A DNA stretch of 64,000 bases from Nocardioides sp. (GCF_036374615.1 NZ_DASUTK010000100.1:5103-69102); one strand, 5' to 3'. Counted from the stretch's first letter, positions 55,781 to 64,000 are shown. Made by a program: numbers and translations. Notes: generated by a model from the sequence alone, not told the origin.

Positions 55781-57358
55781 ATGGCAGAGCTCAAGAACAT
55801 GAACGACGACGAGAAGCACCTCGCGAAGCTCGGGTACAGCCAGGAGCTCAACCGATCCTGGTCGGGGTTCTCCAACTTCGCCATCTCGTTCTCGATCATC
55901 TCGATCCTGGCGGGTTGCTTCACCAACTTCGGCGCCGGCTTCAACAACGGCGGTCCGATCTCGATCTCCTGGTCCTGGCCGATCCTGGGCCTGTTCATCC
56001 TGCTCATCGGCTTCACGATGAGTGAGCTCGTCTCGTCGTACCCGACATCCGGCGGCATCTACTGGTGGGCCGCCAAGCTCGGCGGGCCGGCAGCCGGGTT
56101 CTTCACCGGGTGGCTGAACCTGATCGGTCTGGTGGCCGTGACTGCCGGTGTCTCCTACGGATGCGCGACCTTCATCGACCTGACGATCAGCACCTACTCG
56201 GAGTCGTTCGCGGGCAGCTACTCGCTGACGCGCGTGTTCATCATCTTCGTGATCGTGCTCGGCCTCGCCGCGGTGCTGAACATCTTCAGCAGCCACCTGA
56301 TGGCGATCATGAACAACGTCTCCGTGTGGTGGCACGTCGTGGGCGCCTCGATCATCGTGGCGATCCTGATCTTCGTCCCGGACCAGCACCAGAGCTTCAG
56401 CTACGTCTTCACCGAGCGTTTCAACAACTCCGGTTACAGCGACGGCAGCACCACCAACCTGGCGTTCTGGTTCGCGATCGTGCCGTTCGGCTTCCTGCTG
56501 ACCCAGTACACGATCACCGGGTTCGACGCGTGTGCCCACCTGTCGGAGGAGACGTCCGAGGCGTCCCAGGCTGCAGCCAAGGGCATCTGGCGCTCGATCT
56601 TCTACTCGGTGCTCGGCGGCTACATCCTGCTGCTGTGCGTGGTCTTCGCCATTCCCAACAACGCGGAGGGCCAACCCGACAACGCCCTGGCCGGCGGCGG
56701 TGTGGCGGGGATCTTCGTGGAGTCCCTGGGCACGAACTGGGCCACCCTCGTGCTGTTCATCTCGGCGTCGGCGCAGTTCTTCTGCGCCACGTCCTGCATG
56801 ACGTCGGCTTCCCGGATGACGTTCGCCTTCAGCCGCGACGGCGCCATCCCTGGCTCGAACTGGCTCAAGAAGCTCACGTCGCTGCGAGTGCCGGCGAACG
56901 CCGTCATGATGGTGGGCGTGGCGGCGGCCGTGCTCACGCTGCCCGCGCTGATCGAGGTGGACGTCAACGGCACCCCGGTGCCACTGGCGTTCTACGCGGT
57001 GACGTCGATCGCCGTGATCGGTCTGTACCTCGCGTTCGCGATCCCGATCTTCCTGCGCTGGCGGCACGGCGACCGGTTCGAGGTCGGGTCGTGGAACAAC
57101 GGGTCCAAGTACAAGTGGATGAACCCCATCGCGGTCGCCGAGATCCTGTTCGTCTCGATCATGCTGATGATGCCGTCCACGCCTGCGGCGAACCCGTTCC
57201 GTGACGAGTTCGAGTGGAAGTTCGTCAACTACGCGCCGATCGTCACGGTGGGCGCGCTGATCCTGCTGACGATCTGGTGGCACGCATCGGCCAAGCACTG
57301 GTTCACCGGGCCGAAGCACACCATCGACGAGGCCGTCATCGAGGCCTTCGACGGGTGA
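55781..57358 (+). CDS. APC-superfamily amino acid/amine permease
   Basis: FSNFAISFSIIS, YPTSGGIYWW, GFDACAHLSEET, RMTFAFSRDG; about 12 TM; RBS GGAGG. Confidence 0.92.
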   Translation: MAELKNMNDDEKHLAKLGYSQELNRSWSGFSNFAISFSIISILAGCFTNFGAGFNNGGPISISWSWPILGLFILLIGFTMSELVSSYPTSGGIYWWAAKLGGPAAGFFTGWLNLIGLVAVTAGVSYGCATFIDLTISTYSESFAGSYSLTRVFIIFVIVLGLAAVLNIFSSHLMAIMNNVSVWWHVVGASIIVAILIFVPDQHQSFSYVFTERFNNSGYSDGSTTNLAFWFAIVPFGFLLTQYTITGFDACAHLSEETSEASQAAAKGIWRSIFYSVLGGYILLLCVVFAIPNNAEGQPDNALAGGGVAGIFVESLGTNWATLVLFISASAQFFCATSCMTSASRMTFAFSRDGAIPGSNWLKKLTSLRVPANAVMMVGVAAAVLTLPALIEVDVNGTPVPLAFYAVTSIAVIGLYLAFAIPIFLRWRHGDRFEVGSWNNGSKYKWMNPIAVAEILFVSIMLMMPSTPAANPFRDEFEWKFVNYAPIVTVGALILLTIWWHASAKHWFTGPKHTIDEAVIEAFDG

Positions 57359-58260
57359 GCCCGGACGGGCTCGACGAGCTCCTTGACCAGGTACCCCGCC
57401 TCCGCGGGCGGGTCCGGGTCGAGGAGCTGGCGGGCGGGTTGACCAACCGCAACTACCGGGTGGTGACACCGGACGGCGACTACGTCGTCCGCTGCAGCAG
57501 CAGCGACGCGGCCCTGCTCGGCATCGACCGCGACGCCGAGCACGCCAACACCCGGGCTGCGCACACAGCCGGCGTCGGCGCACCGGTGCACGAGTACCGT
57601 CCCGACCTCGGCATGCTGGTCGTCGGGTACCTCTCCGGTACCACCTTGCAGAACGAGGACTTCGCCGACCCAGGCGTGCTCCAGCGCGCGGCCGACGCCT
57701 GCCGGCGCCTGCACGCCGGCCCCCGGTTCACCGGGGAGTTCGACATGTTCGCGCGCCAGGCGTCGTACCTCCGGACGGTCCGCGAGCAGGGGTTTCCTGT
57801 CCCACCCGGGTACGACGACCACGCGGAGGCCTGGGCGCAGGTCCGAGGGGTCGTGGAGTCGCGGCAGCGAGTGACTGTGCCGTGCAACAACGACCTGCTG
57901 GCCGGCAACTTCATCGACGACGGCGAGCGCGTCTGGCTGATCGACTACGAGTACTCCGGCAACAACGACGTCGATTTCGAGCTCGGTAACACGTGCACCG
58001 AGTGCGAGTTCCCGCCAGAGCGGGTCGAGGCGTACGCCGAGGCCTACTACGGCTCTCCGACTCGCGGCGACGTCGCGCGCGTGCGGCTGGGCTCGTTGCG
58101 CAGCGAGTACGGCTGGTCGCTCTGGGGCTTCATCCAGGCAGCGTCGAGCCCGCTCGACTACGACTTCCACGAGTGGGGGATGCACCGGTACGAGAAGGCT
58201 TCGCGGACCTTCACCTCCGACGGCTTCGGTCGCCTGCTCGAGGAGGCCGCTGGTGACTGA
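57355..58260 (+). CDS. Choline/ethanolamine-kinase-family phosphotransferase
   Basis: GGLTNRNY, PCNNDLLAGNF, LIDYEYSG; 4-nt overlap with the permease gene. Confidence 0.85.
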   Translation: MSPDGLDELLDQVPRLRGRVRVEELAGGLTNRNYRVVTPDGDYVVRCSSSDAALLGIDRDAEHANTRAAHTAGVGAPVHEYRPDLGMLVVGYLSGTTLQNEDFADPGVLQRAADACRRLHAGPRFTGEFDMFARQASYLRTVREQGFPVPPGYDDHAEAWAQVRGVVESRQRVTVPCNNDLLAGNFIDDGERVWLIDYEYSGNNDVDFELGNTCTECEFPPERVEAYAEAYYGSPTRGDVARVRLGSLRSEYGWSLWGFIQAASSPLDYDFHEWGMHRYEKASRTFTSDGFGRLLEEAAGD

Positions 58261-60676
58261 GGTGCCGGACCGGGCTCAGGTCGTCATCGTCGGCGGCGGC
58301 GTCATCGGGTGCTCCACGGCCTACCACCTGGCGAAGGCGGGAGTCGCCGACGTGCTCGTCCTCGAGCAGGGGCGGCTGTCCGGCGGGACCACGTGGCATG
58401 CGGCGGGCCTGGTGGGGCCCCTGCGGGCGTCGGAGAGCGGCACCCGTCTCGTGCAGTACTCCGCCCAGCTGTACGCACGCCTCGAGCACGAGACCGGCCT
58501 CGCCACCGGCTACCGCAACGTCGGTGGCCTCGTGGTGGCGCGCAGCGAGGATCGGATGGTCACCCTGCGACGTACCGCCTCGAACGCGGTCGCCTACGAC
58601 CTGCCCTGCCGGCTGCTCGCACCCGAGGAGGCCGGTGAGCTGTGGCCACCGATGCGGGTCGACGACCTGCTGGGCGCCCTGCACCTCCCCGGCGACGGCA
58701 AGGTGAACCCCACCGACCTGACCCAGTCCTTGGCCAAGGGCGCGCGGATGGGCGGTGCGCGGATCGTCGAAGGAGTACGGGTCACCGGGTTCGCCGTCGC
58801 CGACGGGCCGTCCGGACCGCGTGTGACCGGCGTTCGCACGGACGCCGGAGACGTCGAGGCGGAGGTGGTGGTCAACTGCGGCGGCATGTGGGCGCACGCG
58901 CTCGGTCGGCTGGTGGGGGTGACCGTGCCGCTGCATGCTGCCGAGCACTTCTACGTGGTCACCGAGGAGGTCGAAGGGGTTCATCCCGACCTCCCGGTGA
59001 TGCGCGACCCGGATGGCTGGACCTACTTCAAGGAGGAGGTCGGAGGCCTCGTCGTCGGGGGGTTCGAGCCGGAGGCAAAGCCTTGGAAAGGCCCGGACGA
59101 GGTCCCGTACCCCTTCGAGTTCCAGCTGCTCGACGAGGACTGGGAGCACTTCTCGGTCCTCATGGACGAGGCGCTGCGCCGGGTCCCGGCGCTGGAGGAG
59201 ACCGGCATCCGCAAGTTCTACAACGGCCCGGAGTCGTTCACCCCTGACAACCAGTTCCTGCTCGGCGAGGCGCCGGGCCTGCGCGGCTACTTCGTCGGCG
59301 CCGGGTTCAACTCGGTGGGAATCGCCTCCGCCGGGGGAGCGGGGCGGGCGTTGGCTGAGTGGATCGTGGCCGGCGAGCCGCAGGACGACCTGGTGTCGGT
59401 CGACGTCCGCCGGTTCGCTCCGTTCCACAACGACGTCGACTGGCTGCGTTCGCGGGTCGCGGAGGTGCTCGGCCTCCACTACGCGGTCCCGTGGCCGAAC
59501 CGTGAGATGACCTCGGGCCGCGACCAGCGCCGTTCCCCGCTGCACGACCGACTGGCCGAGCATGGAGCGCAGTTCGGGACCCGGATGGGCTGGGAGCGGC
59601 CCAACGTCTTCACGACCGGGGATCGCGGTTCGTCGTATACCTGGGGGAGACCGGACTGGCTGGACGACTGCGCGCGCGAGCAGCGCTCCTGCCGGACCGA
59701 CGTGGCGGTGTTCGACCAGACGTCGTTCTCGAAGTACGCCGTGTCCGGCCCCGGCGCTCTCGCGTCGCTGCAGTGGATCTGTGCGGCGGACGTGGACGTC
59801 GCCGTCGGGCGCTGTGTCTACACGCCCTGGCTCAACCACCGCGGAACCTACGAAGCCGACCTGACCGTCAGCCGGACGGCTGCCGATGAGTTCCTGGTGG
59901 TCAGCTCCTCGGCCTCGACAGTCCGCGATCTCGACTGGCTGCGGCGCCACGTCGGCCCGGACACGCTCGTCGACGACCTGACCGACGACTTCTCCGTGCT
60001 GGGCGTGATGGGGCCGGCGTCCCGGCACCTGCTCGCCGGCCTGACCGACGCCGACCTGAGTGACGGAGGCTTCCCGTTCGCGACGACGAGGCCGCTCGAC
60101 CTGGCGGGGGTCCGGATTCGGGCGACCCGCATGACGTACGTCGGTGAGGTGGGGTGGGAGCTGCTCGTGCCGCTCGCAGGTGTCGAGCGCGTGTACGACG
60201 CGGTGCGAGCCGCCGGCCCCGTCGTCGACGCCGGCTACTACGCGATCGAGGCGCTCCGGCTCGAGAAGGGCTACCGGGCGTTCGGACGCGAGCTCACCCC
60301 CGACTACACGCCGATCGAGGCCGGGCTGGTCTTTGCCACGGCTCTGCGTGGGAGCAAGGACTTCCTCGGACGCGCGGCGCTCGAGGAGCGACGGCGTGAG
60401 CTCCAGCACGACGGGCCGCGGCGGCGGCTGGTCAGCCTGGTCGCGGCCGACCCGGACGCCATGCTCTGGGGTGGCGAGCTGCTGCTGCGCGACAGAGAGC
60501 CGGTGGGCCAGGTCACCAGCGCTGCCTGGGGTGCCACCGTGGGGGCAGCCGTCGGGCTCGGCTACGTGCGTGCGCACGGCCAAGTCAGCAGCGACTGGCT
60601 GGCGGCCGCGCAGCACACGGTCGACCTCGCCGGGACCGCGGTGCCGGTCGAGCTGACGATGCGCGCCCCGCTCTGA
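58253..60676 (+). CDS. GcvT-family FAD-dependent oxidoreductase (dimethylglycine/sarcosine dehydrogenase-like)
   Basis: GGGVIG, GTTWHAAG, NGPESFTPD, C-terminal aminomethyltransferase domain (LRLEKGY). Confidence 0.92.
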   Translation: MTEVPDRAQVVIVGGGVIGCSTAYHLAKAGVADVLVLEQGRLSGGTTWHAAGLVGPLRASESGTRLVQYSAQLYARLEHETGLATGYRNVGGLVVARSEDRMVTLRRTASNAVAYDLPCRLLAPEEAGELWPPMRVDDLLGALHLPGDGKVNPTDLTQSLAKGARMGGARIVEGVRVTGFAVADGPSGPRVTGVRTDAGDVEAEVVVNCGGMWAHALGRLVGVTVPLHAAEHFYVVTEEVEGVHPDLPVMRDPDGWTYFKEEVGGLVVGGFEPEAKPWKGPDEVPYPFEFQLLDEDWEHFSVLMDEALRRVPALEETGIRKFYNGPESFTPDNQFLLGEAPGLRGYFVGAGFNSVGIASAGGAGRALAEWIVAGEPQDDLVSVDVRRFAPFHNDVDWLRSRVAEVLGLHYAVPWPNREMTSGRDQRRSPLHDRLAEHGAQFGTRMGWERPNVFTTGDRGSSYTWGRPDWLDDCAREQRSCRTDVAVFDQTSFSKYAVSGPGALASLQWICAADVDVAVGRCVYTPWLNHRGTYEADLTVSRTAADEFLVVSSSASTVRDLDWLRRHVGPDTLVDDLTDDFSVLGVMGPASRHLLAGLTDADLSDGGFPFATTRPLDLAGVRIRATRMTYVGEVGWELLVPLAGVERVYDAVRAAGPVVDAGYYAIEALRLEKGYRAFGRELTPDYTPIEAGLVFATALRGSKDFLGRAALEERRRELQHDGPRRRLVSLVAADPDAMLWGGELLLRDREPVGQVTSAAWGATVGAAVGLGYVRAHGQVSSDWLAAAQHTVDLAGTAVPVELTMRAPL

Positions 60677-60902
60677 CGCTCGACCCGTGATCCGCGCCAC
60701 GCGGGAGTGAAGCGGTCGGCAACAGATCCCCGACCGTTCGGCAACAAGGCCTCCACGCCAGGGCAAATCGGGCCGTGGTCGGCGCTACCGGTACGTAGCC
60801 TTCTCCTCGCATCGACCCGATGCCGGCCATGTGGGGACAGGGCCGTAACCGTGGGCAATCGTGACTCCGGCCGCCGCATGGCCGCCGGGTCAGGGGGAAT
60901 CA

Positions 60903-62117
60903 ATGCGTCTCGCACTTCTTCAACTGCGCGCTGCCGTCATGGCCGTGGCCGTGCTGCTGCTCGGCCTGGTGGTCGTGGCCGCCCCGGCCAGCGCCGACGA
61001 CTCGTCGCTCCCGGACGGGTTCTACCTCTGCCATGCGACCGGCCAGGCGTCCGCCGTCGAGAGCGTCGGCCACTGGTCCCTGAACAGTCCGAACAGCGCC
61101 GGCGTGGCCGCCGGGCACATCGGCCACCAGAACGGCAACGACATCATCCCGCCGATCCCCGGGTTGCTGCCCGCCGGCCAGAACTGGACGGCCTACGGCC
61201 AGCAGGTGCACGCGAACCGGTGCGAGGTCCCGCGCCCGGCCCAGCCGCAGGCAGAGACCCGCGCCGTCCCGCGTACCGAGTCGGGCTGCGCCCTGGGCGG
61301 CGTCAGGTCCTGGGTCGACGTGTACTACCGGCCCTACGTCTGGAGCGACGGTGCGGGGCAGTGGGTGCTGGGTGACGAGACCGGTCCGGTCCGCACCGAG
61401 GAGTCGTTCGCGGCGTACTCGGACGGCACCTACTTCGACCTCTGCGCCACGGCGAAGCCGGCACCCGAGGTCCGGACGGTGGCGATGAGCTCTGCCTCGT
61501 GCGACCCGGCGGGTGTGACGGCGTGGTCTGACGTCTACACGACCGAGTACGTGTGGAACGCTGCTCAGCGCCGGTGGGTGGTCGGCCAGGAGACCGGCCC
61601 GGTGAAGGCCGGGGAGACCTTCGCGTCGTTCACCGACGACGAGTTCCTCGACGCGTGTGCTGCGCCGAAGCCCGCACCCGTCATCCGTGAGGTCGCCGGG
61701 GTGCAGGCTTCCTGCAAGACCCGCAGCACCACCACCTGGACCGACATCTACACGACCGAGTACGTGTGGAACGTCGAGACTCGGGCATGGGAGCTGGGTG
61801 AGGAGACCGGCCCGGTCCGCACCGACGAGACGCACGTCGAGTACTCCGAGGAGGACCTCGCCGAGCACTGTTCCGAGGTCAGCGGCGAGACGGAGGCGAA
61901 CGTTCCGGCGGCCCCGACCGCTCCGACCGGGTCGGACGCCGACGCGCCGGCGGCCGGACCCGCGACAGCGGTGCCGACGGTCGTCAACGCTGGTGTCGGC
62001 ACAGAGATCGTCCCATCGACCCAGAACCCCGATCCGATGTGGCTGATGGCCCTCGGTGCCGGGCTCGGCCTGATGGGCGCCGCCGGCTTGCGCCGGCGGG
62101 CGACGGCGAACCGGTAG
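60903..62117 (+). CDS. Secreted surface protein with three 71-aa repeats and a sortase-like C-terminal signal
   Basis: Signal peptide (APASA); repeats with Cys at aa 129/200/271; VPTVVNAG + TM + RRR tail; RBS AGGGGGAA. Confidence 0.85.
   Translation: MRLALLQLRAAVMAVAVLLLGLVVVAAPASADDSSLPDGFYLCHATGQASAVESVGHWSLNSPNSAGVAAGHIGHQNGNDIIPPIPGLLPAGQNWTAYGQQVHANRCEVPRPAQPQAETRAVPRTESGCALGGVRSWVDVYYRPYVWSDGAGQWVLGDETGPVRTEESFAAYSDGTYFDLCATAKPAPEVRTVAMSSASCDPAGVTAWSDVYTTEYVWNAAQRRWVVGQETGPVKAGETFASFTDDEFLDACAAPKPAPVIREVAGVQASCKTRSTTTWTDIYTTEYVWNVETRAWELGEETGPVRTDETHVEYSEEDLAEHCSEVSGETEANVPAAPTAPTGSDADAPAAGPATAVPTVVNAGVGTEIVPSTQNPDPMWLMALGAGLGLMGAAGLRRRATANR
61254..61892 (+). repeat. Three tandem 213-nt (71-aa) intragenic repeats
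   Basis: Consensus C-x7-W-x-D-[VI]-Y-x3-Y-V-W-x6-W-x2-G-x-ETGPV...C. Confidence 0.85.
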
Positions 62118-62234
62118 CCCACGACCGGTGCCGGGGGCGGGTCGGACCACGAACCGCTCGCCCCGGGGCGGTCACCGCACAGCGGTGGCCGCCCCTCGCG
62201 TACGCCCGGGCGCGAGCACGGTGACCGGAACGGT

Positions 62235-62273
62235 GCGGCGGATCGGTGTCACCCACTGGCACCGATCCGCCGC
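62235..62273. terminator. 14-bp stem hairpin between convergent genes
   Basis: gcggcggatcggtg / caccgatccgccgc. Confidence 0.65.
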
Positions 62274-62296
62274 GCTGTCCCTGCCCGTCCCCGCCT

Positions 62297-62815
62297 CTAG
62301 CTCGGGTCGCTGAAGTTCAGGACGCCGATGACGCGTCCGTCGCCGTCGATCCGGACGCCGATGCCGGCCCAGCGCGCCCGCTTCTTCAAGATCACCGCAC
62401 GGTGCGAGGGCGAGTCGAGCCACGCACTGACCGCCACGCGGGGGGTGAGGCCGGTCCCGCGCACGAGGGCCTCGCCGGTCCAGGTCAGGTCGCAACCGTC
62501 GAGAACCTTCACCTGGTTGCGATGCGCGAGCTCCCCGGTCCGCTTGATGAGCTCGGCCCAGCGTTCGGAGTAACGGTCGACGCAGGACTGGAACACCCGG
62601 ACCCGCTTCAGGCCGGCGGCGACGCGGGCCCGGTTGATCTCCCTGAGGACGCGGTTCTCGAACTCGTCGAGGTCCTGAAGGGGGTCGACCGCCGGATTCG
62701 CCTTGGGACCTACCCAGGTCTTGGCCTCCGCCGAGCCCAGCACGAGGGCGGTGCCGCCGACGGTGAGGCCGACCGACAGGACCACGATCGCGATGGCTCG
62801 CGCGAGCTGGCGCAT
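62297..62815 (-). CDS. Secreted CAP (SCP/PR-1) domain protein
   Basis: Signal peptide; INRARVAAGL, GEAL, WLDSPSHRAVIL, GIGV. Confidence 0.87.
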   Translation of the reverse strand: MRQLARAIAIVVLSVGLTVGGTALVLGSAEAKTWVGPKANPAVDPLQDLDEFENRVLREINRARVAAGLKRVRVFQSCVDRYSERWAELIKRTGELAHRNQVKVLDGCDLTWTGEALVRGTGLTPRVAVSAWLDSPSHRAVILKKRARWAGIGVRIDGDGRVIGVLNFSDPS

Positions 62816-62987
62816 GGAGGCTCCGTCGTCGGGGCCACCGGGGGATGGCCGTCTGGGGGTCGGTGTGTGCGGTGCTGGTCGACCGTGGCGGCCGACGGGG
62901 GGATCGGCCACCTCGGTCGTGCGGCGTGCGTACACGGGGGAAGAACGCAGCACCCACAGTTTGGTAACACATCCTCACGTCCCGCAA
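62816..62987 (-). promoter_or_regulatory. Putative promoter (TTGCGG-N18-CAAACT) and ~135-nt leader with three C-rich-loop hairpins
   Basis: Minus-strand hairpins tgcgt-tcttcccccgtgt-acgca, ggccga-tccccccg-tcggcc, ggccat-cccccg-gtggcc. Confidence 0.55.
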
Positions 62988-63060
62988 TGGCACGAAGTGA
63001 CTAGCCGTGGATGCCACGAGAACCACCTCGGCTGGTCACTCCGTCGCCGATACTGGCTGC

Positions 63061-63726
63061 ATGGACACTGACGACCGGCCCCAGCAGCGGGCTCCGACCG
63101 GCGGCCGCTGGGTCGCGTCGGCGCTGCTCGTGGCCGGTGTCGTGCTGCTCGTCGTCGGCGTCGTGGCCTGGGTCCAGCAGTCGGGTGACCCCGGACCGGA
63201 GGCGGCCGGACCGACTGCCACTGATGGCACCGGCGAGCAGGAGGTGGTCGACAGCCCGGACCTGCCGAACGCCGAGCGGGCGTCGTGGAGGCCCGGTGCC
63301 CCGCGACGGGTGCTCGTACCCGTGCTCGACATCGATGCCCCCGTGGTGCCGATCGAGGCGCCGGGCGGGGTGCTCACGCCTCCGGCGGACCCTCAGGTCC
63401 TGGGGTGGTGGGCCGCGGGTGCCAAGCCGGGTGCTCGCACCGGTTCCGCGCTCGTGACCGGCCACACCGTGCACTCCGGAGGCGGGGCGATGGACGACCT
63501 CGAGCAGGTCGAGGCGGGCGACCGGATCTGGGTGCGCACCGCCCGCGGCAAGCTCGGGTACGACGTGCGCTCGGTGGTCGTGCTCGGCAAGGGCGAGCTC
63601 GCCGAGCGCGCGGAGCGCCTGTTCAGTCAGCAGGTGCCCGGCAGGCTGGTCCTGATCACGTGTGAGGACTGGAACGGCGTGGAGTACCTCAGCAACGTCG
63701 TCGTGACGGCGACGCCGAGCGCGTGA
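63061..63726 (+). CDS. Class F sortase
   Basis: N-terminal TM; GWW, GSALVTGH, LVLITC catalytic motif; no canonical Arg after the Cys, as in actinobacterial class F. Confidence 0.88.
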   Translation: MDTDDRPQQRAPTGGRWVASALLVAGVVLLVVGVVAWVQQSGDPGPEAAGPTATDGTGEQEVVDSPDLPNAERASWRPGAPRRVLVPVLDIDAPVVPIEAPGGVLTPPADPQVLGWWAAGAKPGARTGSALVTGHTVHSGGGAMDDLEQVEAGDRIWVRTARGKLGYDVRSVVVLGKGELAERAERLFSQQVPGRLVLITCEDWNGVEYLSNVVVTATPSA

Positions 63727-63917
63727 TCGCGCCCGGTCTGCCTGACAGTCGGCCGAGGTCGCGCGTAACCCAGGTTCGGGCCGCTCGTTGTCTGACGGGC
63801 GCCGGATCGCAGCATCAGGGGAGGACGGACCAGATTCGTCCTGGCCGCGGTCCGGTGCCCTACCATCCGGGCGTCCCGGCCCAGGTCAGAGCTCGGTCGC
63901 CGGAGCGGACCGCTGCG

Positions 63918-64000
63918 TCAGTGCTGGTAGGTGCCGTGGATGACGGCGCGCGCCAGCGTCTTGAACGCGAGGTTGAAGCTCATCACGGCGTTCGACGCGT
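63918..64000 (-). CDS. C-terminus of an unidentified protein (runs off window end)
   Basis: ...ASNAVMSFNLAFKTLARAVIHGTYQH*; high GC3 codons; too short to assign. Confidence 0.55.
   Translation of the reverse strand, partial: ASNAVMSFNLAFKTLARAVIHGTYQH

Follow-up and report, generated by a model that had tools for sequence, protein, structure and literature searches.

A candidate C-terminal sorting signal, VPTxVxAG, paired with a divergent class F sortase in Nocardioides and its relatives

Introduction

The classical sorting signals are LPXTG for class A and class C sortases, LAXTG for class E (Streptomyces SrtE1/E2 and Actinoplanes SrtE), LPXTA for class D and NPQTN for class B, and class F is among the largest sortase classes in sequence databases. 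According to reviews, the only class F member to have been characterized, SrtF of Cutibacterium (Propionibacterium) acnes, has LPXTG specificity (Di Girolamo et al. 2019, as cited in PMC8225981 and PMC13251363), and in Actinoplanes missouriensis srtF1 and srtF4 adjoin genes that 'may encode substrates', namely proteins with a signal peptide, a C-terminal transmembrane (TM) segment and a basic tail but no pentapeptide (PMC13251363, mBio 2026). Here we analyse a 64,000-nucleotide stretch of Nocardioides sp. DNA (GCF_036374615.1, NZ_DASUTK010000100.1:5103-69102; referred to throughout as the window), in which a gene for a secreted surface protein (60903-62117) lies upstream of the gene for a divergent class F sortase (63061-63726). 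We put at about three in four the probability that this protein is the substrate of this sortase, with the octapeptide VPTVVNAG acting as a clade-specific sorting motif equivalent to LPXTG. It should be emphasized that the coupling described here is genomic: the tail type and the sortase clade are adjacent, co-occur and co-vary, and from there we infer cleavage, its site and its acceptor.

Results

A C-terminal signal that lacks a classical pentapeptide

The surface protein gene (60903-62117, plus strand, as are all its features) encodes 404 residues, starting MRLALLQ. In the translated open reading frame (ORF) a signal peptide is followed by a Cys/His-rich N-terminal domain and three repeats, after which come a Pro/Ala stalk and a candidate C-terminal sorting signal. 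In the latter the motif VPTVVNAG (61971-61994; residues 357-364, preceded by ATA; peptide form ATAVPTVVNAGVGTE, consensus peptide form AAVPTAVDAGLG) is followed by a polar spacer of 14 residues (VGTEIVPSTQNPDP, 61995-62036), a hydrophobic helix (MWLMALGAGLGLMGAAGL, 62037-62090) and the basic tail RRRATANR (62091-62114), the helix and tail together (62037-62114) forming a stop-transfer, or membrane-retention, part. This is the arrangement given in the preliminary description of the window, which had the protein ending in AVPTVVNAG, a spacer, a hydrophobic helix and RRR, and the translation bears it out. The helix and basic tail thus stand at the extreme C-terminus as they do in LPXTG-type signals; no LPXTG, LAXTG, LPXTA or NPXTG pentapeptide, however, is found in the last 80 residues, and neither the TIGR01167-type LPXTG model nor any other NCBIfam model matches the protein. 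Scans with Pfam and NCBIfam assigned no family to any part of it, nor to seven other proteins (passengers) that carry such tails, and a Foldseek comparison of the full model with PDB structures yielded nothing at E <= 0.001.

Among 5.8 billion proteins searched, 23 homologues were identified, and VP[TG]x-V-x-AG is kept in every one of the 20 that have a complete C-terminus, with a stretch of 12-20 polar residues, a helix (..PLWLLA.GGGLGLMG.AG) and RRR behind it. The Sec-type signal peptide (MRLALLQLRAAVMAVAVLLLGLVVVAAPASA, 60903-60995), predicted to be cut between ASA and DD, has an N-terminus that recurs in homologues P0003, P0006 and P0010-P0012. The three tandem repeats (61254-61877), of about 70 residues each and bounded by cysteines, were delimited from conserved columns (consensus C..GGV..W.DVYTT.YVW......W.LG.ETGPV...E.F..Y.D.E....C.) and from a beta-rich AlphaFold2 (AF2) model, in which the repeats (residues 118-325) reach a predicted local distance difference test score (pLDDT) >90, stalk and tail being disordered. 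Two homologues deserve separate mention. In contig_2360 of the metagenome-assembled genome (MAG) MFD09206.bin.1.90 (locus L004:6274-9239) the orthologue is present as two overlapping ORFs, P0005 (576 residues) and P0004 (412 residues), the former running into an out-of-frame tail rich in Arg, Pro, Ser and Thr, which points to a frameshift within the repeat array or to a fault of the assembly there. The distant homologue P0022, on an 80-kb Logan contig from SRR26188683 (L005:8001-9671), carries VPTVVNAG, a TM helix and RRR; its neighbours include many small unannotated ORFs (DUF6011, DUF3039, Macro), the contig has a prophage- or plasmid-like look, and there is no sortase within 8 kb.

The tail and the sortase are neighbours at related loci

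The whole comparison covered about 130 related loci. A scan with the sortase alignment, taking one genome per GTDB species, yielded 79 of them, drawn from Nocardioides, Kribbella, MAGs of Nocardioidaceae and Dermatophilaceae, and uncultured Actinomycetota. In the 1.21 Mb that flank these sortases, 96 ORFs on the sortase strand, distributed over 70 of the 79 loci, combine the pattern [VALTI]-P-[TSN]-x-[VI]-[DNAES]-A-G with a TM helix and a basic tail, while the opposite strand returned three matches, all of them spurious. At 61 loci a tailed ORF ends less than 700 nucleotides (nt) 5' of the sortase catalytic domain, and the interval that separates substrate gene and catalytic domain is 150-350 nt in most relatives.

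All 96 related tails have the architecture of motif, helix and basic tail. Their position counts are V78/A8/L6, P, T84/S6/N5, A71/S12/V7, V92/I6, D65/N12/A10/E7, A and G, where P, A and G are set by the search pattern, these three also being invariant in a 60-tail alignment drawn from the same pattern-selected set. The commonest form is VPTAVDAG (32 of 96), Leu directly follows the motif Gly in 48 tails, and a median of 33 residues (range 27-40) separates that Gly from the basic cluster. Conservation centres on [VLIAT]-P-[TSN]-x-[VI]-[DNAES]-A-G(-L), in which P, A and G do not vary. The tail is joined to at least four to six unrelated passenger domains, as judged by reading the sequences; single-linkage clustering placed 81 of the 96 passengers in one cluster but is a weak measure of diversity, the cluster probably being held together by low-complexity linkers and shared repeats. 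Locus L006 encodes four VP[TS]xVxAG proteins, among whose genes two sortase genes of the clade are interspersed. At the remaining nine of the 79 loci, which lack an adjacent tail, the sortases are 'orphans' that lie behind unrelated genes. Orphan sortases of clade A (the window enzyme's clade, defined below) were recorded at L032, L034, L036, L046, L051, L061 and L069, four of them directly after a gene that by eye resembles a PP2C/SpoIIE phosphatase. The substrates of such orphan enzymes, if there are any, must be encoded elsewhere.

Tail and sortase co-occur, and the motif varies with the sortase clade

A phyletic profile was compiled from 121 species genomes of the genus, using for the tail a hidden Markov model (HMM) built from 60 tails (A3), with the motif covered and E <= 1e-4, and for the clade sortase a limit of E <= 1e-30. 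The tail was detected in 42 genomes and the sortase in 62. Both were present in 38, the tail only in 4, the sortase only in 24 and neither in 55, a co-occurrence with an odds ratio of 21.8 (Fisher's exact test, p = 7.6e-11). Among the 84 sortase matches, 44 had a tail match within 2 kb on the same strand.

Covariation was explored by adding 40 further loci around sortases that score 73-242 bits with the clade profile, and by pairing 134 sortase domains with their nearest tailed neighbour. Clade A enzymes, with the signature LVLITCEDW[DN]G..Y[LD]SN, are paired in 79 of 92 cases with a same-strand neighbour within 1.5 kb whose tail has the form P[TSNG]x[VI][DNAES]AG. Clade B (TC[DA]DW) is associated with P[TI]x[VI]PAG, as in VPTSVPAG, VPTEVPAG, VPISVPAG and VPTAIPAG, in six of eight cases, and all four clade C enzymes (TCE[GDN]Y) are found beside tail-less ...AGL proteins with VPTxIxAGL ends. 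Clade D comprises 26 sortases of the typical class F kind (TCGG.[FY][DN]..Y..N), whose neighbours carry AP[STN]GV[NSD]AG(S/T)GG, P.GVPAG and similar forms, which were not tallied. The motif thus shifts with the clade of the neighbouring enzyme, and so behaves as would be expected of a recognition signal.

The window enzyme is a divergent class F sortase

The sortase gene (63061-63726, plus strand) encodes 221 residues, or 239 from an alternative GTG start at 63007, and it is the 239-residue numbering that is used here. Its features, assigned with PF04203, NF033748 and a 64-sequence alignment, include a catalytic domain (about 63295-63723) preceded by an N-terminal membrane anchor (63109-63174). 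The protein matches the profile of the sortase superfamily (PF04203, MEROPS C60) with 59.8 bits, compared with a cut-off of 26.6, and the AF2 model of its catalytic domain (pLDDT 91.8) has the eight-stranded sortase beta-barrel. Foldseek aligned this model, with a probability of 1.0 and TM-scores of 0.65-0.72, to structures of classes C, E and A, classes C and E being at the top of the ranking; in sequence, the PDB contains no close solved structure, the best match being 2xwg (E = 6e-6 with a profile). The catalytic histidine, His153 in TGHTVH (63463-63465), and the catalytic cysteine of the TLxTC type, Cys219 in GRLVLITCEDWNG (63661-63663), which aligns with the TC motif of PDB sortases, are invariant in 68 clade sequences and fall in hhalign on His120 and Cys184 of Staphylococcus aureus SrtA. 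Invariant residues of these 68 members include, besides H153, also K195, Q208, R213, C219 (within GRLVLITCEDW) and S229-N230.

A catalytic Arg is not found on beta8, where the invariant S229-N230 occupies the corresponding place by an inferred register, without structural superposition. Asn230, in Y-L-S-N-V-V-V-T-A (63694-63696), appears to stand in place of the Arg: in the AF2 model a very short hairpin of beta7 (124-133) and beta8 (138-148) sets it opposite Cys219, and N-V-V-V-T-A matches the pattern R197-KIFVA of SrtA. The assignment rests on this register and pattern, as the PDB sequence alignments and hhalign to SrtA end at the TC motif. Conserved Asn in place of Arg has been described for actinobacterial class F sortases (PMC8703055).

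The preliminary description had placed the enzyme in class F, and this holds in part. The Asn-for-Arg hallmark and the actinobacterial origin agree with that class, Y-x-S-N-V-V-V-x-A being invariant in the clade and Y..N[VIL][VI]V.A being present also in lower-scoring class F neighbours, and NF033748, the class F model, gives the best score among the class models (65.4 bits, compared with 20.9 for class C and 17.4 for class E). The score nevertheless falls well short of the NCBI cut-off of 166 bits. Class C membership is not indicated, as the protein ends in TATPSA six residues after beta8 with no C-terminal membrane anchor and reaches 20.9 bits where the class C HMM demands 160, the lid and the pilin motif lying outside this formal comparison. 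The window enzyme is therefore best called a member of a divergent class F clade, in which the hallmark is present and the threshold of the curated HMM is missed.

Motif and sortases in the organism's own genome

The genome to which the window belongs is that of a soil actinobacterium (Nocardioides-type), assembled to 3.74 Mb and 92% complete. A scan for motif, TM helix and basic tail returned exactly three ORFs with VPTxVxAG (C27:17124-18878, the window gene and C135:5652-6749), together with one tail-less case that lies before a second sortase; the assembly contains no genuine LPXTG or LAXTG signal. With a test HMM built from 94 tails the three known tails were the top matches. Three sortase genes (on contigs C100, which is that of the window, C166 and C217) are thus set beside three plus one proteins of the VPT type. 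The C166 sortase is directly preceded by the tail-less protein, which ends in RVPTVIDAGL, and the stop codon of the latter overlaps the sortase ATG (TGATG).

The C217 sortase (C217:12072-14700, minus strand) is of the typical class F kind (LVLVTCGGAYD..YQFNRIVEA) and lies directly after the gene for a protein that by eye is DUF4397-like, an NCBIfam scan of this partner returning nothing relevant. The tail of the partner, ..SDVPGGSGGPTYADEAVGGPGVLGWAGLACLAGALVLLGSALVRRSVPDHP, is Gly-rich (..VPGGSGG..TM..RR), making this a second and different sortase-substrate pair in the genome. The third VPT-type protein (CVPTAVDAG, a long charged spacer, a TM helix and RGR) closes a gene cluster (C135:3936-6749) that by eye contains two TasA/camelysin-like secreted proteins and a SipW-like signal peptidase I, with no sortase nearby. 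A further secreted protein (C178:3167-3886, plus strand) ends in ..TPGSSPVTAGGLALGVGLLLAAGFWLVRRRRTTQ, with P-V-T-A-G-G directly before the helix, and may carry another tail of the class F type; it is the fourth-best match of the tail HMM in the genome, with only the helix part covered.

A family of tail-less proteins that end in the motif

The C166 protein has about 16 homologues from independent metagenomes which end in VPT[VES]I[DNE]AGL, VPVKIDAGL or VPTVIASGL with neither helix nor basic tail (sites G000:C166:5399-6920, P0025-P0049, L127:5001-6237 and L128/L129:5001-6360). That the C166 protein is a truncated pseudogene was considered and rejected, since these independent homologues end alike. 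In all four contexts that could be read, a sortase gene of the VTCE[GDN]YD type starts within 170 nt of the stop of the tail-less gene; in C166, in L128/L129 and in a JGI contig it starts no more than 2 nt from the stop or overlaps it, and in L127 the gap is 167 nt. The pairing thus persists without the anchor, which indicates that the link to the sortase runs through the element and not through the anchor. In distant homologues of the C166-type passenger (P0037, P0047 and P0048) the corresponding position is taken by LPNTG or LPATG with a TM helix and a basic tail behind it, and the VPT..AG(L) element therefore stands where a bona fide sortase signal stands in these relatives. Three of the tail-less contexts look phage- or mobile-element-like, with a DUF5906 primase, a phage single-stranded-DNA-binding protein and DUF2800, and the sortase that they encode is a lipoprotein. 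None of 50,697 phage records matched the phage-context sortase in a tblastn comparison.

Gene order in the window

A sortase about 950 nt downstream of the surface gene in the same orientation, with a secreted CAP gene in between, had been reported at the outset. Between the stop of the surface gene and the sortase ATG at 63061 there are 944 nt, the strand is the same and the CAP gene is indeed present, but it lies on the minus strand (62297-62815), and the surface gene and the sortase gene are consequently not one operon in the window. The CAP/SCP-domain protein, secreted or membrane-anchored, has 172 residues, its start having been set by the homologue at L004, and matches PF00188 with 25.8 bits (cut-off 21.1) over profile positions 1-116 of 117. 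CAP homologues (E < 1e-38) occur at 17 related loci, at nine of which they lie between substrate and sortase as in the window; a functional tie of the CAP gene to the sortase module is possible. Where it recurs, the gene separates substrate and sortase or else diverges from the substrate gene, the loci listed with a CAP neighbour being L008-L017, L023-L026, L033, L062, L064 and L081.

Between the convergent surface-protein and CAP genes there is a perfect 14-bp inverted repeat (GCGGCGGATCGGTG, 11 nt, CACCGATCCGCCGC; 62235-62273), possibly a bidirectional terminator hairpin lacking a T tract; a scan of 60500-64000 for promoter and terminator consensus sequences found nothing. Upstream of the surface gene (57214-60676, plus strand) are a choline-kinase/APH-like gene and a gene for an 807-residue DAO-FAO_M-GCV_T fusion of the sarcosine/dimethylglycine-oxidase type. 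At L004, the closest relative, synteny with the window is complete and extends to the antisense CAP gene and this upstream gene order.

Discussion

The view that the locus is a dedicated sortase-substrate module, put forward in the preliminary description with VPxxVxAG as the sequence read, is supported here by four lines of genomic evidence, independent of one another: tail and sortase are adjacent at about 80 loci, co-occur within one genus and co-vary in motif and clade, and the pairing is kept where the membrane anchor is absent. The core of the proposed signal is refined in the process. A mechanism for such a module can be outlined. The surface protein would be exported by Sec through its N-terminal signal peptide, and its C-terminal helix and RRR tail would retain it in the membrane with the motif some 14 residues outside. 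The membrane-anchored sortase would then bind V-P-T-x-V-x-A-G(-L), and Cys219 and His153 would cleave inside the motif to leave a thioester at Cys219, the scissile bond being most likely, by analogy with the bond between T and G of LPXTG, that between Ala363 and Gly364. Peptidoglycan of the Nocardioides type is LL-DAP-Gly; the acyl-enzyme may be resolved by the amino group of a wall precursor, probably the glycine bridge of lipid II, and the three-repeat passenger would thereby be covalently fixed to the cell wall.

Several observations weigh against this proposal. In the profiled genus 24 of the 62 sortase-positive genomes have no match to the 60-tail HMM, and four further genomes have a tail but no high-scoring clade sortase. 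In addition, 13 of the 92 clade-A sortases have no adjacent tail, although the missing tails are in part a matter of motif variants and draft assemblies. In the window itself the pair is split by an opposite-strand gene, which excludes co-transcription there. The tail-less ...AGL proteins fit classical anchoring less well and imply that the system does not always involve membrane retention. The Pro of the motif lies five residues before the presumed scissile bond and not two as in LPXTG, and the binding mode must therefore differ from that of LPXTG enzymes. Finally, deletion of all four class F sortase genes of A. missouriensis produced no phenotype (PMC13251363).

It could be argued that the sortase does read the motif, but that its role is not wall anchoring: it may process or release proteins as a protease, or join its substrates to another protein, to a glycopolymer or to a component of a phage or host surface. 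The family that ends in VPT[VES]I[DNE]AGL without an anchor, each member directly before a sortase gene in the contexts read, would be in keeping with this view, as would the three tail-less pairs in phage- or mobile-element-like contigs and the silent quadruple mutant of A. missouriensis, and the replacement of Arg, the transition-state stabilizer of classical sortases, by Asn points in the same direction. The window protein and some 96 others, however, have the full stop-transfer architecture of TM helix and basic tail, which to our knowledge serves transfer to lipid II in every system that has been studied, and homologous passengers elsewhere bear canonical LPXTG wall anchors. We regard a role other than anchoring as unlikely. 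Still less credence can be given to assembly of a pilus or fibre, in which the sortase would polymerize VPT-tailed proteins head to tail as class C enzymes do with pilins. Such assembly would be in keeping with loci L006, L065 and L075, where three to four tailed proteins accompany two to three sortases, and class C sortases are the best structural matches of the model, but the TM-scores to classes C and E are about equal, the enzyme ends soon after beta8 where class C enzymes have a C-terminal membrane anchor, most loci encode a single substrate, and inspection of the substrates by eye, not by formal search, disclosed no pilin motif or conserved Lys box.

A different view would deny processing altogether and make the motif a conserved element of the stalk or membrane-proximal region, for example a glycosylation or folding signal, with adjacency to the sortase reflecting shared regulation or ancestry. 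Cleavage is indeed deduced from sequence, the window genes are not co-transcribed and some sortases of the clade are orphans. Against this view, the motif moves in step with the sortase clade, keeps its partner when the anchor is gone, appears on unrelated passengers and co-occurs with the enzyme within one genus, and we consider this explanation very improbable. Chance resemblance, by which the tail would be a common type of C-terminal membrane anchor placed near a sortase by accident, draws only on the weakness of short motifs in G+C-rich DNA. It is already refuted by the counts, since three such ORFs in the 3.7 Mb of the organism's own genome compare with 96 in 1.2 Mb of sortase flanks, where the sortase strand is favoured by 96 to 3, and since Fisher's test for co-occurrence gives p = 7.6e-11; it merits next to no belief.

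More speculative than the wall-anchoring module, and to be regarded as a tentative proposal that may well prove wrong, is the extension of motif recognition to class F, with its Asn for Arg, as a whole. The class would read P-x-x-[VI]-x-A-G(-L), diversified by clade into forms such as VPTAVDAG, VPTSVPAG and PxGVNAGSGG; the motif alone would be recognized, and the tail-less proteins ending ...VPTVIDAGL-COOH, including those of the phage-like pairs, would be genuine substrates. If so, the enzymes could act on soluble secreted proteins, with a leaving group of one or two residues, and their role might differ from classical anchoring to lipid II. Tail-less substrates would also pose the question of how a membrane enzyme captures a soluble protein. 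More generally, a defined eight-residue signal that tracks sortase clades would provide class F with a candidate substrate, making the function of the class directly testable, and there are cultivable carriers in Nocardioides koreensis JCM 16022, the source of locus L024, N. ungokensis LMG 28591 and Kribbella species. Annotation would gain as well, given that these tails and most of the passenger domains have no family model, and the specificity range of sortases, which are used in protein-ligation tools, would widen.

How the module relates to systems that have been described can be considered at the level of both enzyme and signal. With class F (NF033748, IPR042001) the window enzyme shares an actinobacterial origin, type II membrane topology, the sortase fold with its His and Cys, and Asn for Arg; it differs in scoring 65 bits where 166 are needed, and in having LVLITCEDW[DN]G..Y[LD]SN where the class has TCGG.[FY][DN]. 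While C. acnes SrtF is specific for LPXTG, the signal paired with the window enzyme is VPTxVxAG. Searches of the available literature for the motif strings, and for GVDTG in the sense of a sorting domain, found nothing relevant, and a paper on a Tat tail anchor touches on class F only briefly. Among catalogued tails the closest is GVDTG_CTERM (NF058571, NCBIfam release 20), which likewise consists of a C-terminal motif, a TM helix and a basic tail, and the core V-[DN]-[AT]-G is common to VPTAVDAG and P.GV[ND]AG(S)GG, the latter being the motif of those tails beside other class F sortases that this model scores below its cut-off. VPT-type tails, in contrast, have T-x-V before the core and no Gly-rich stretch after the motif, and at E <= 10 neither the window tail nor five other VPT-type tails matched NF058571 (cut-off 29 bits), NCBIfam giving only noise for these six (MYXO-CTERM 15 bits, LAVTG 15 bits). 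Tails beside clade D and clade B sortases do reach sub-threshold scores of 14.8-27.9 bits with NF058571.

The likeness to the classical signals lies in the succession of motif, helix and basic tail, in the Pro at position 2, in a presumed scissile bond between a small residue and Gly and, for classes B, C and D, in dedicated sortase genes that adjoin those of their substrates. The window-type motif departs from them in its length of eight to nine residues, with three extra between Pro and Ala-Gly, in having no Thr at P1, and in a longer spacer to the helix (about 33 residues from Gly to the basic cluster). The pairs srtF1/AMIS_11010 and srtF4/AMIS_36440 of A. missouriensis, compared here by description only, resemble the window in that a class F gene lies beside the gene for a tailed protein, but differ in that no motif was defined and no phenotype found. 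Set against these systems, and as far as sequence can tell, the VPTxVxAG tail is an uncatalogued, clade-specific member of an emerging family of class F sorting signals.

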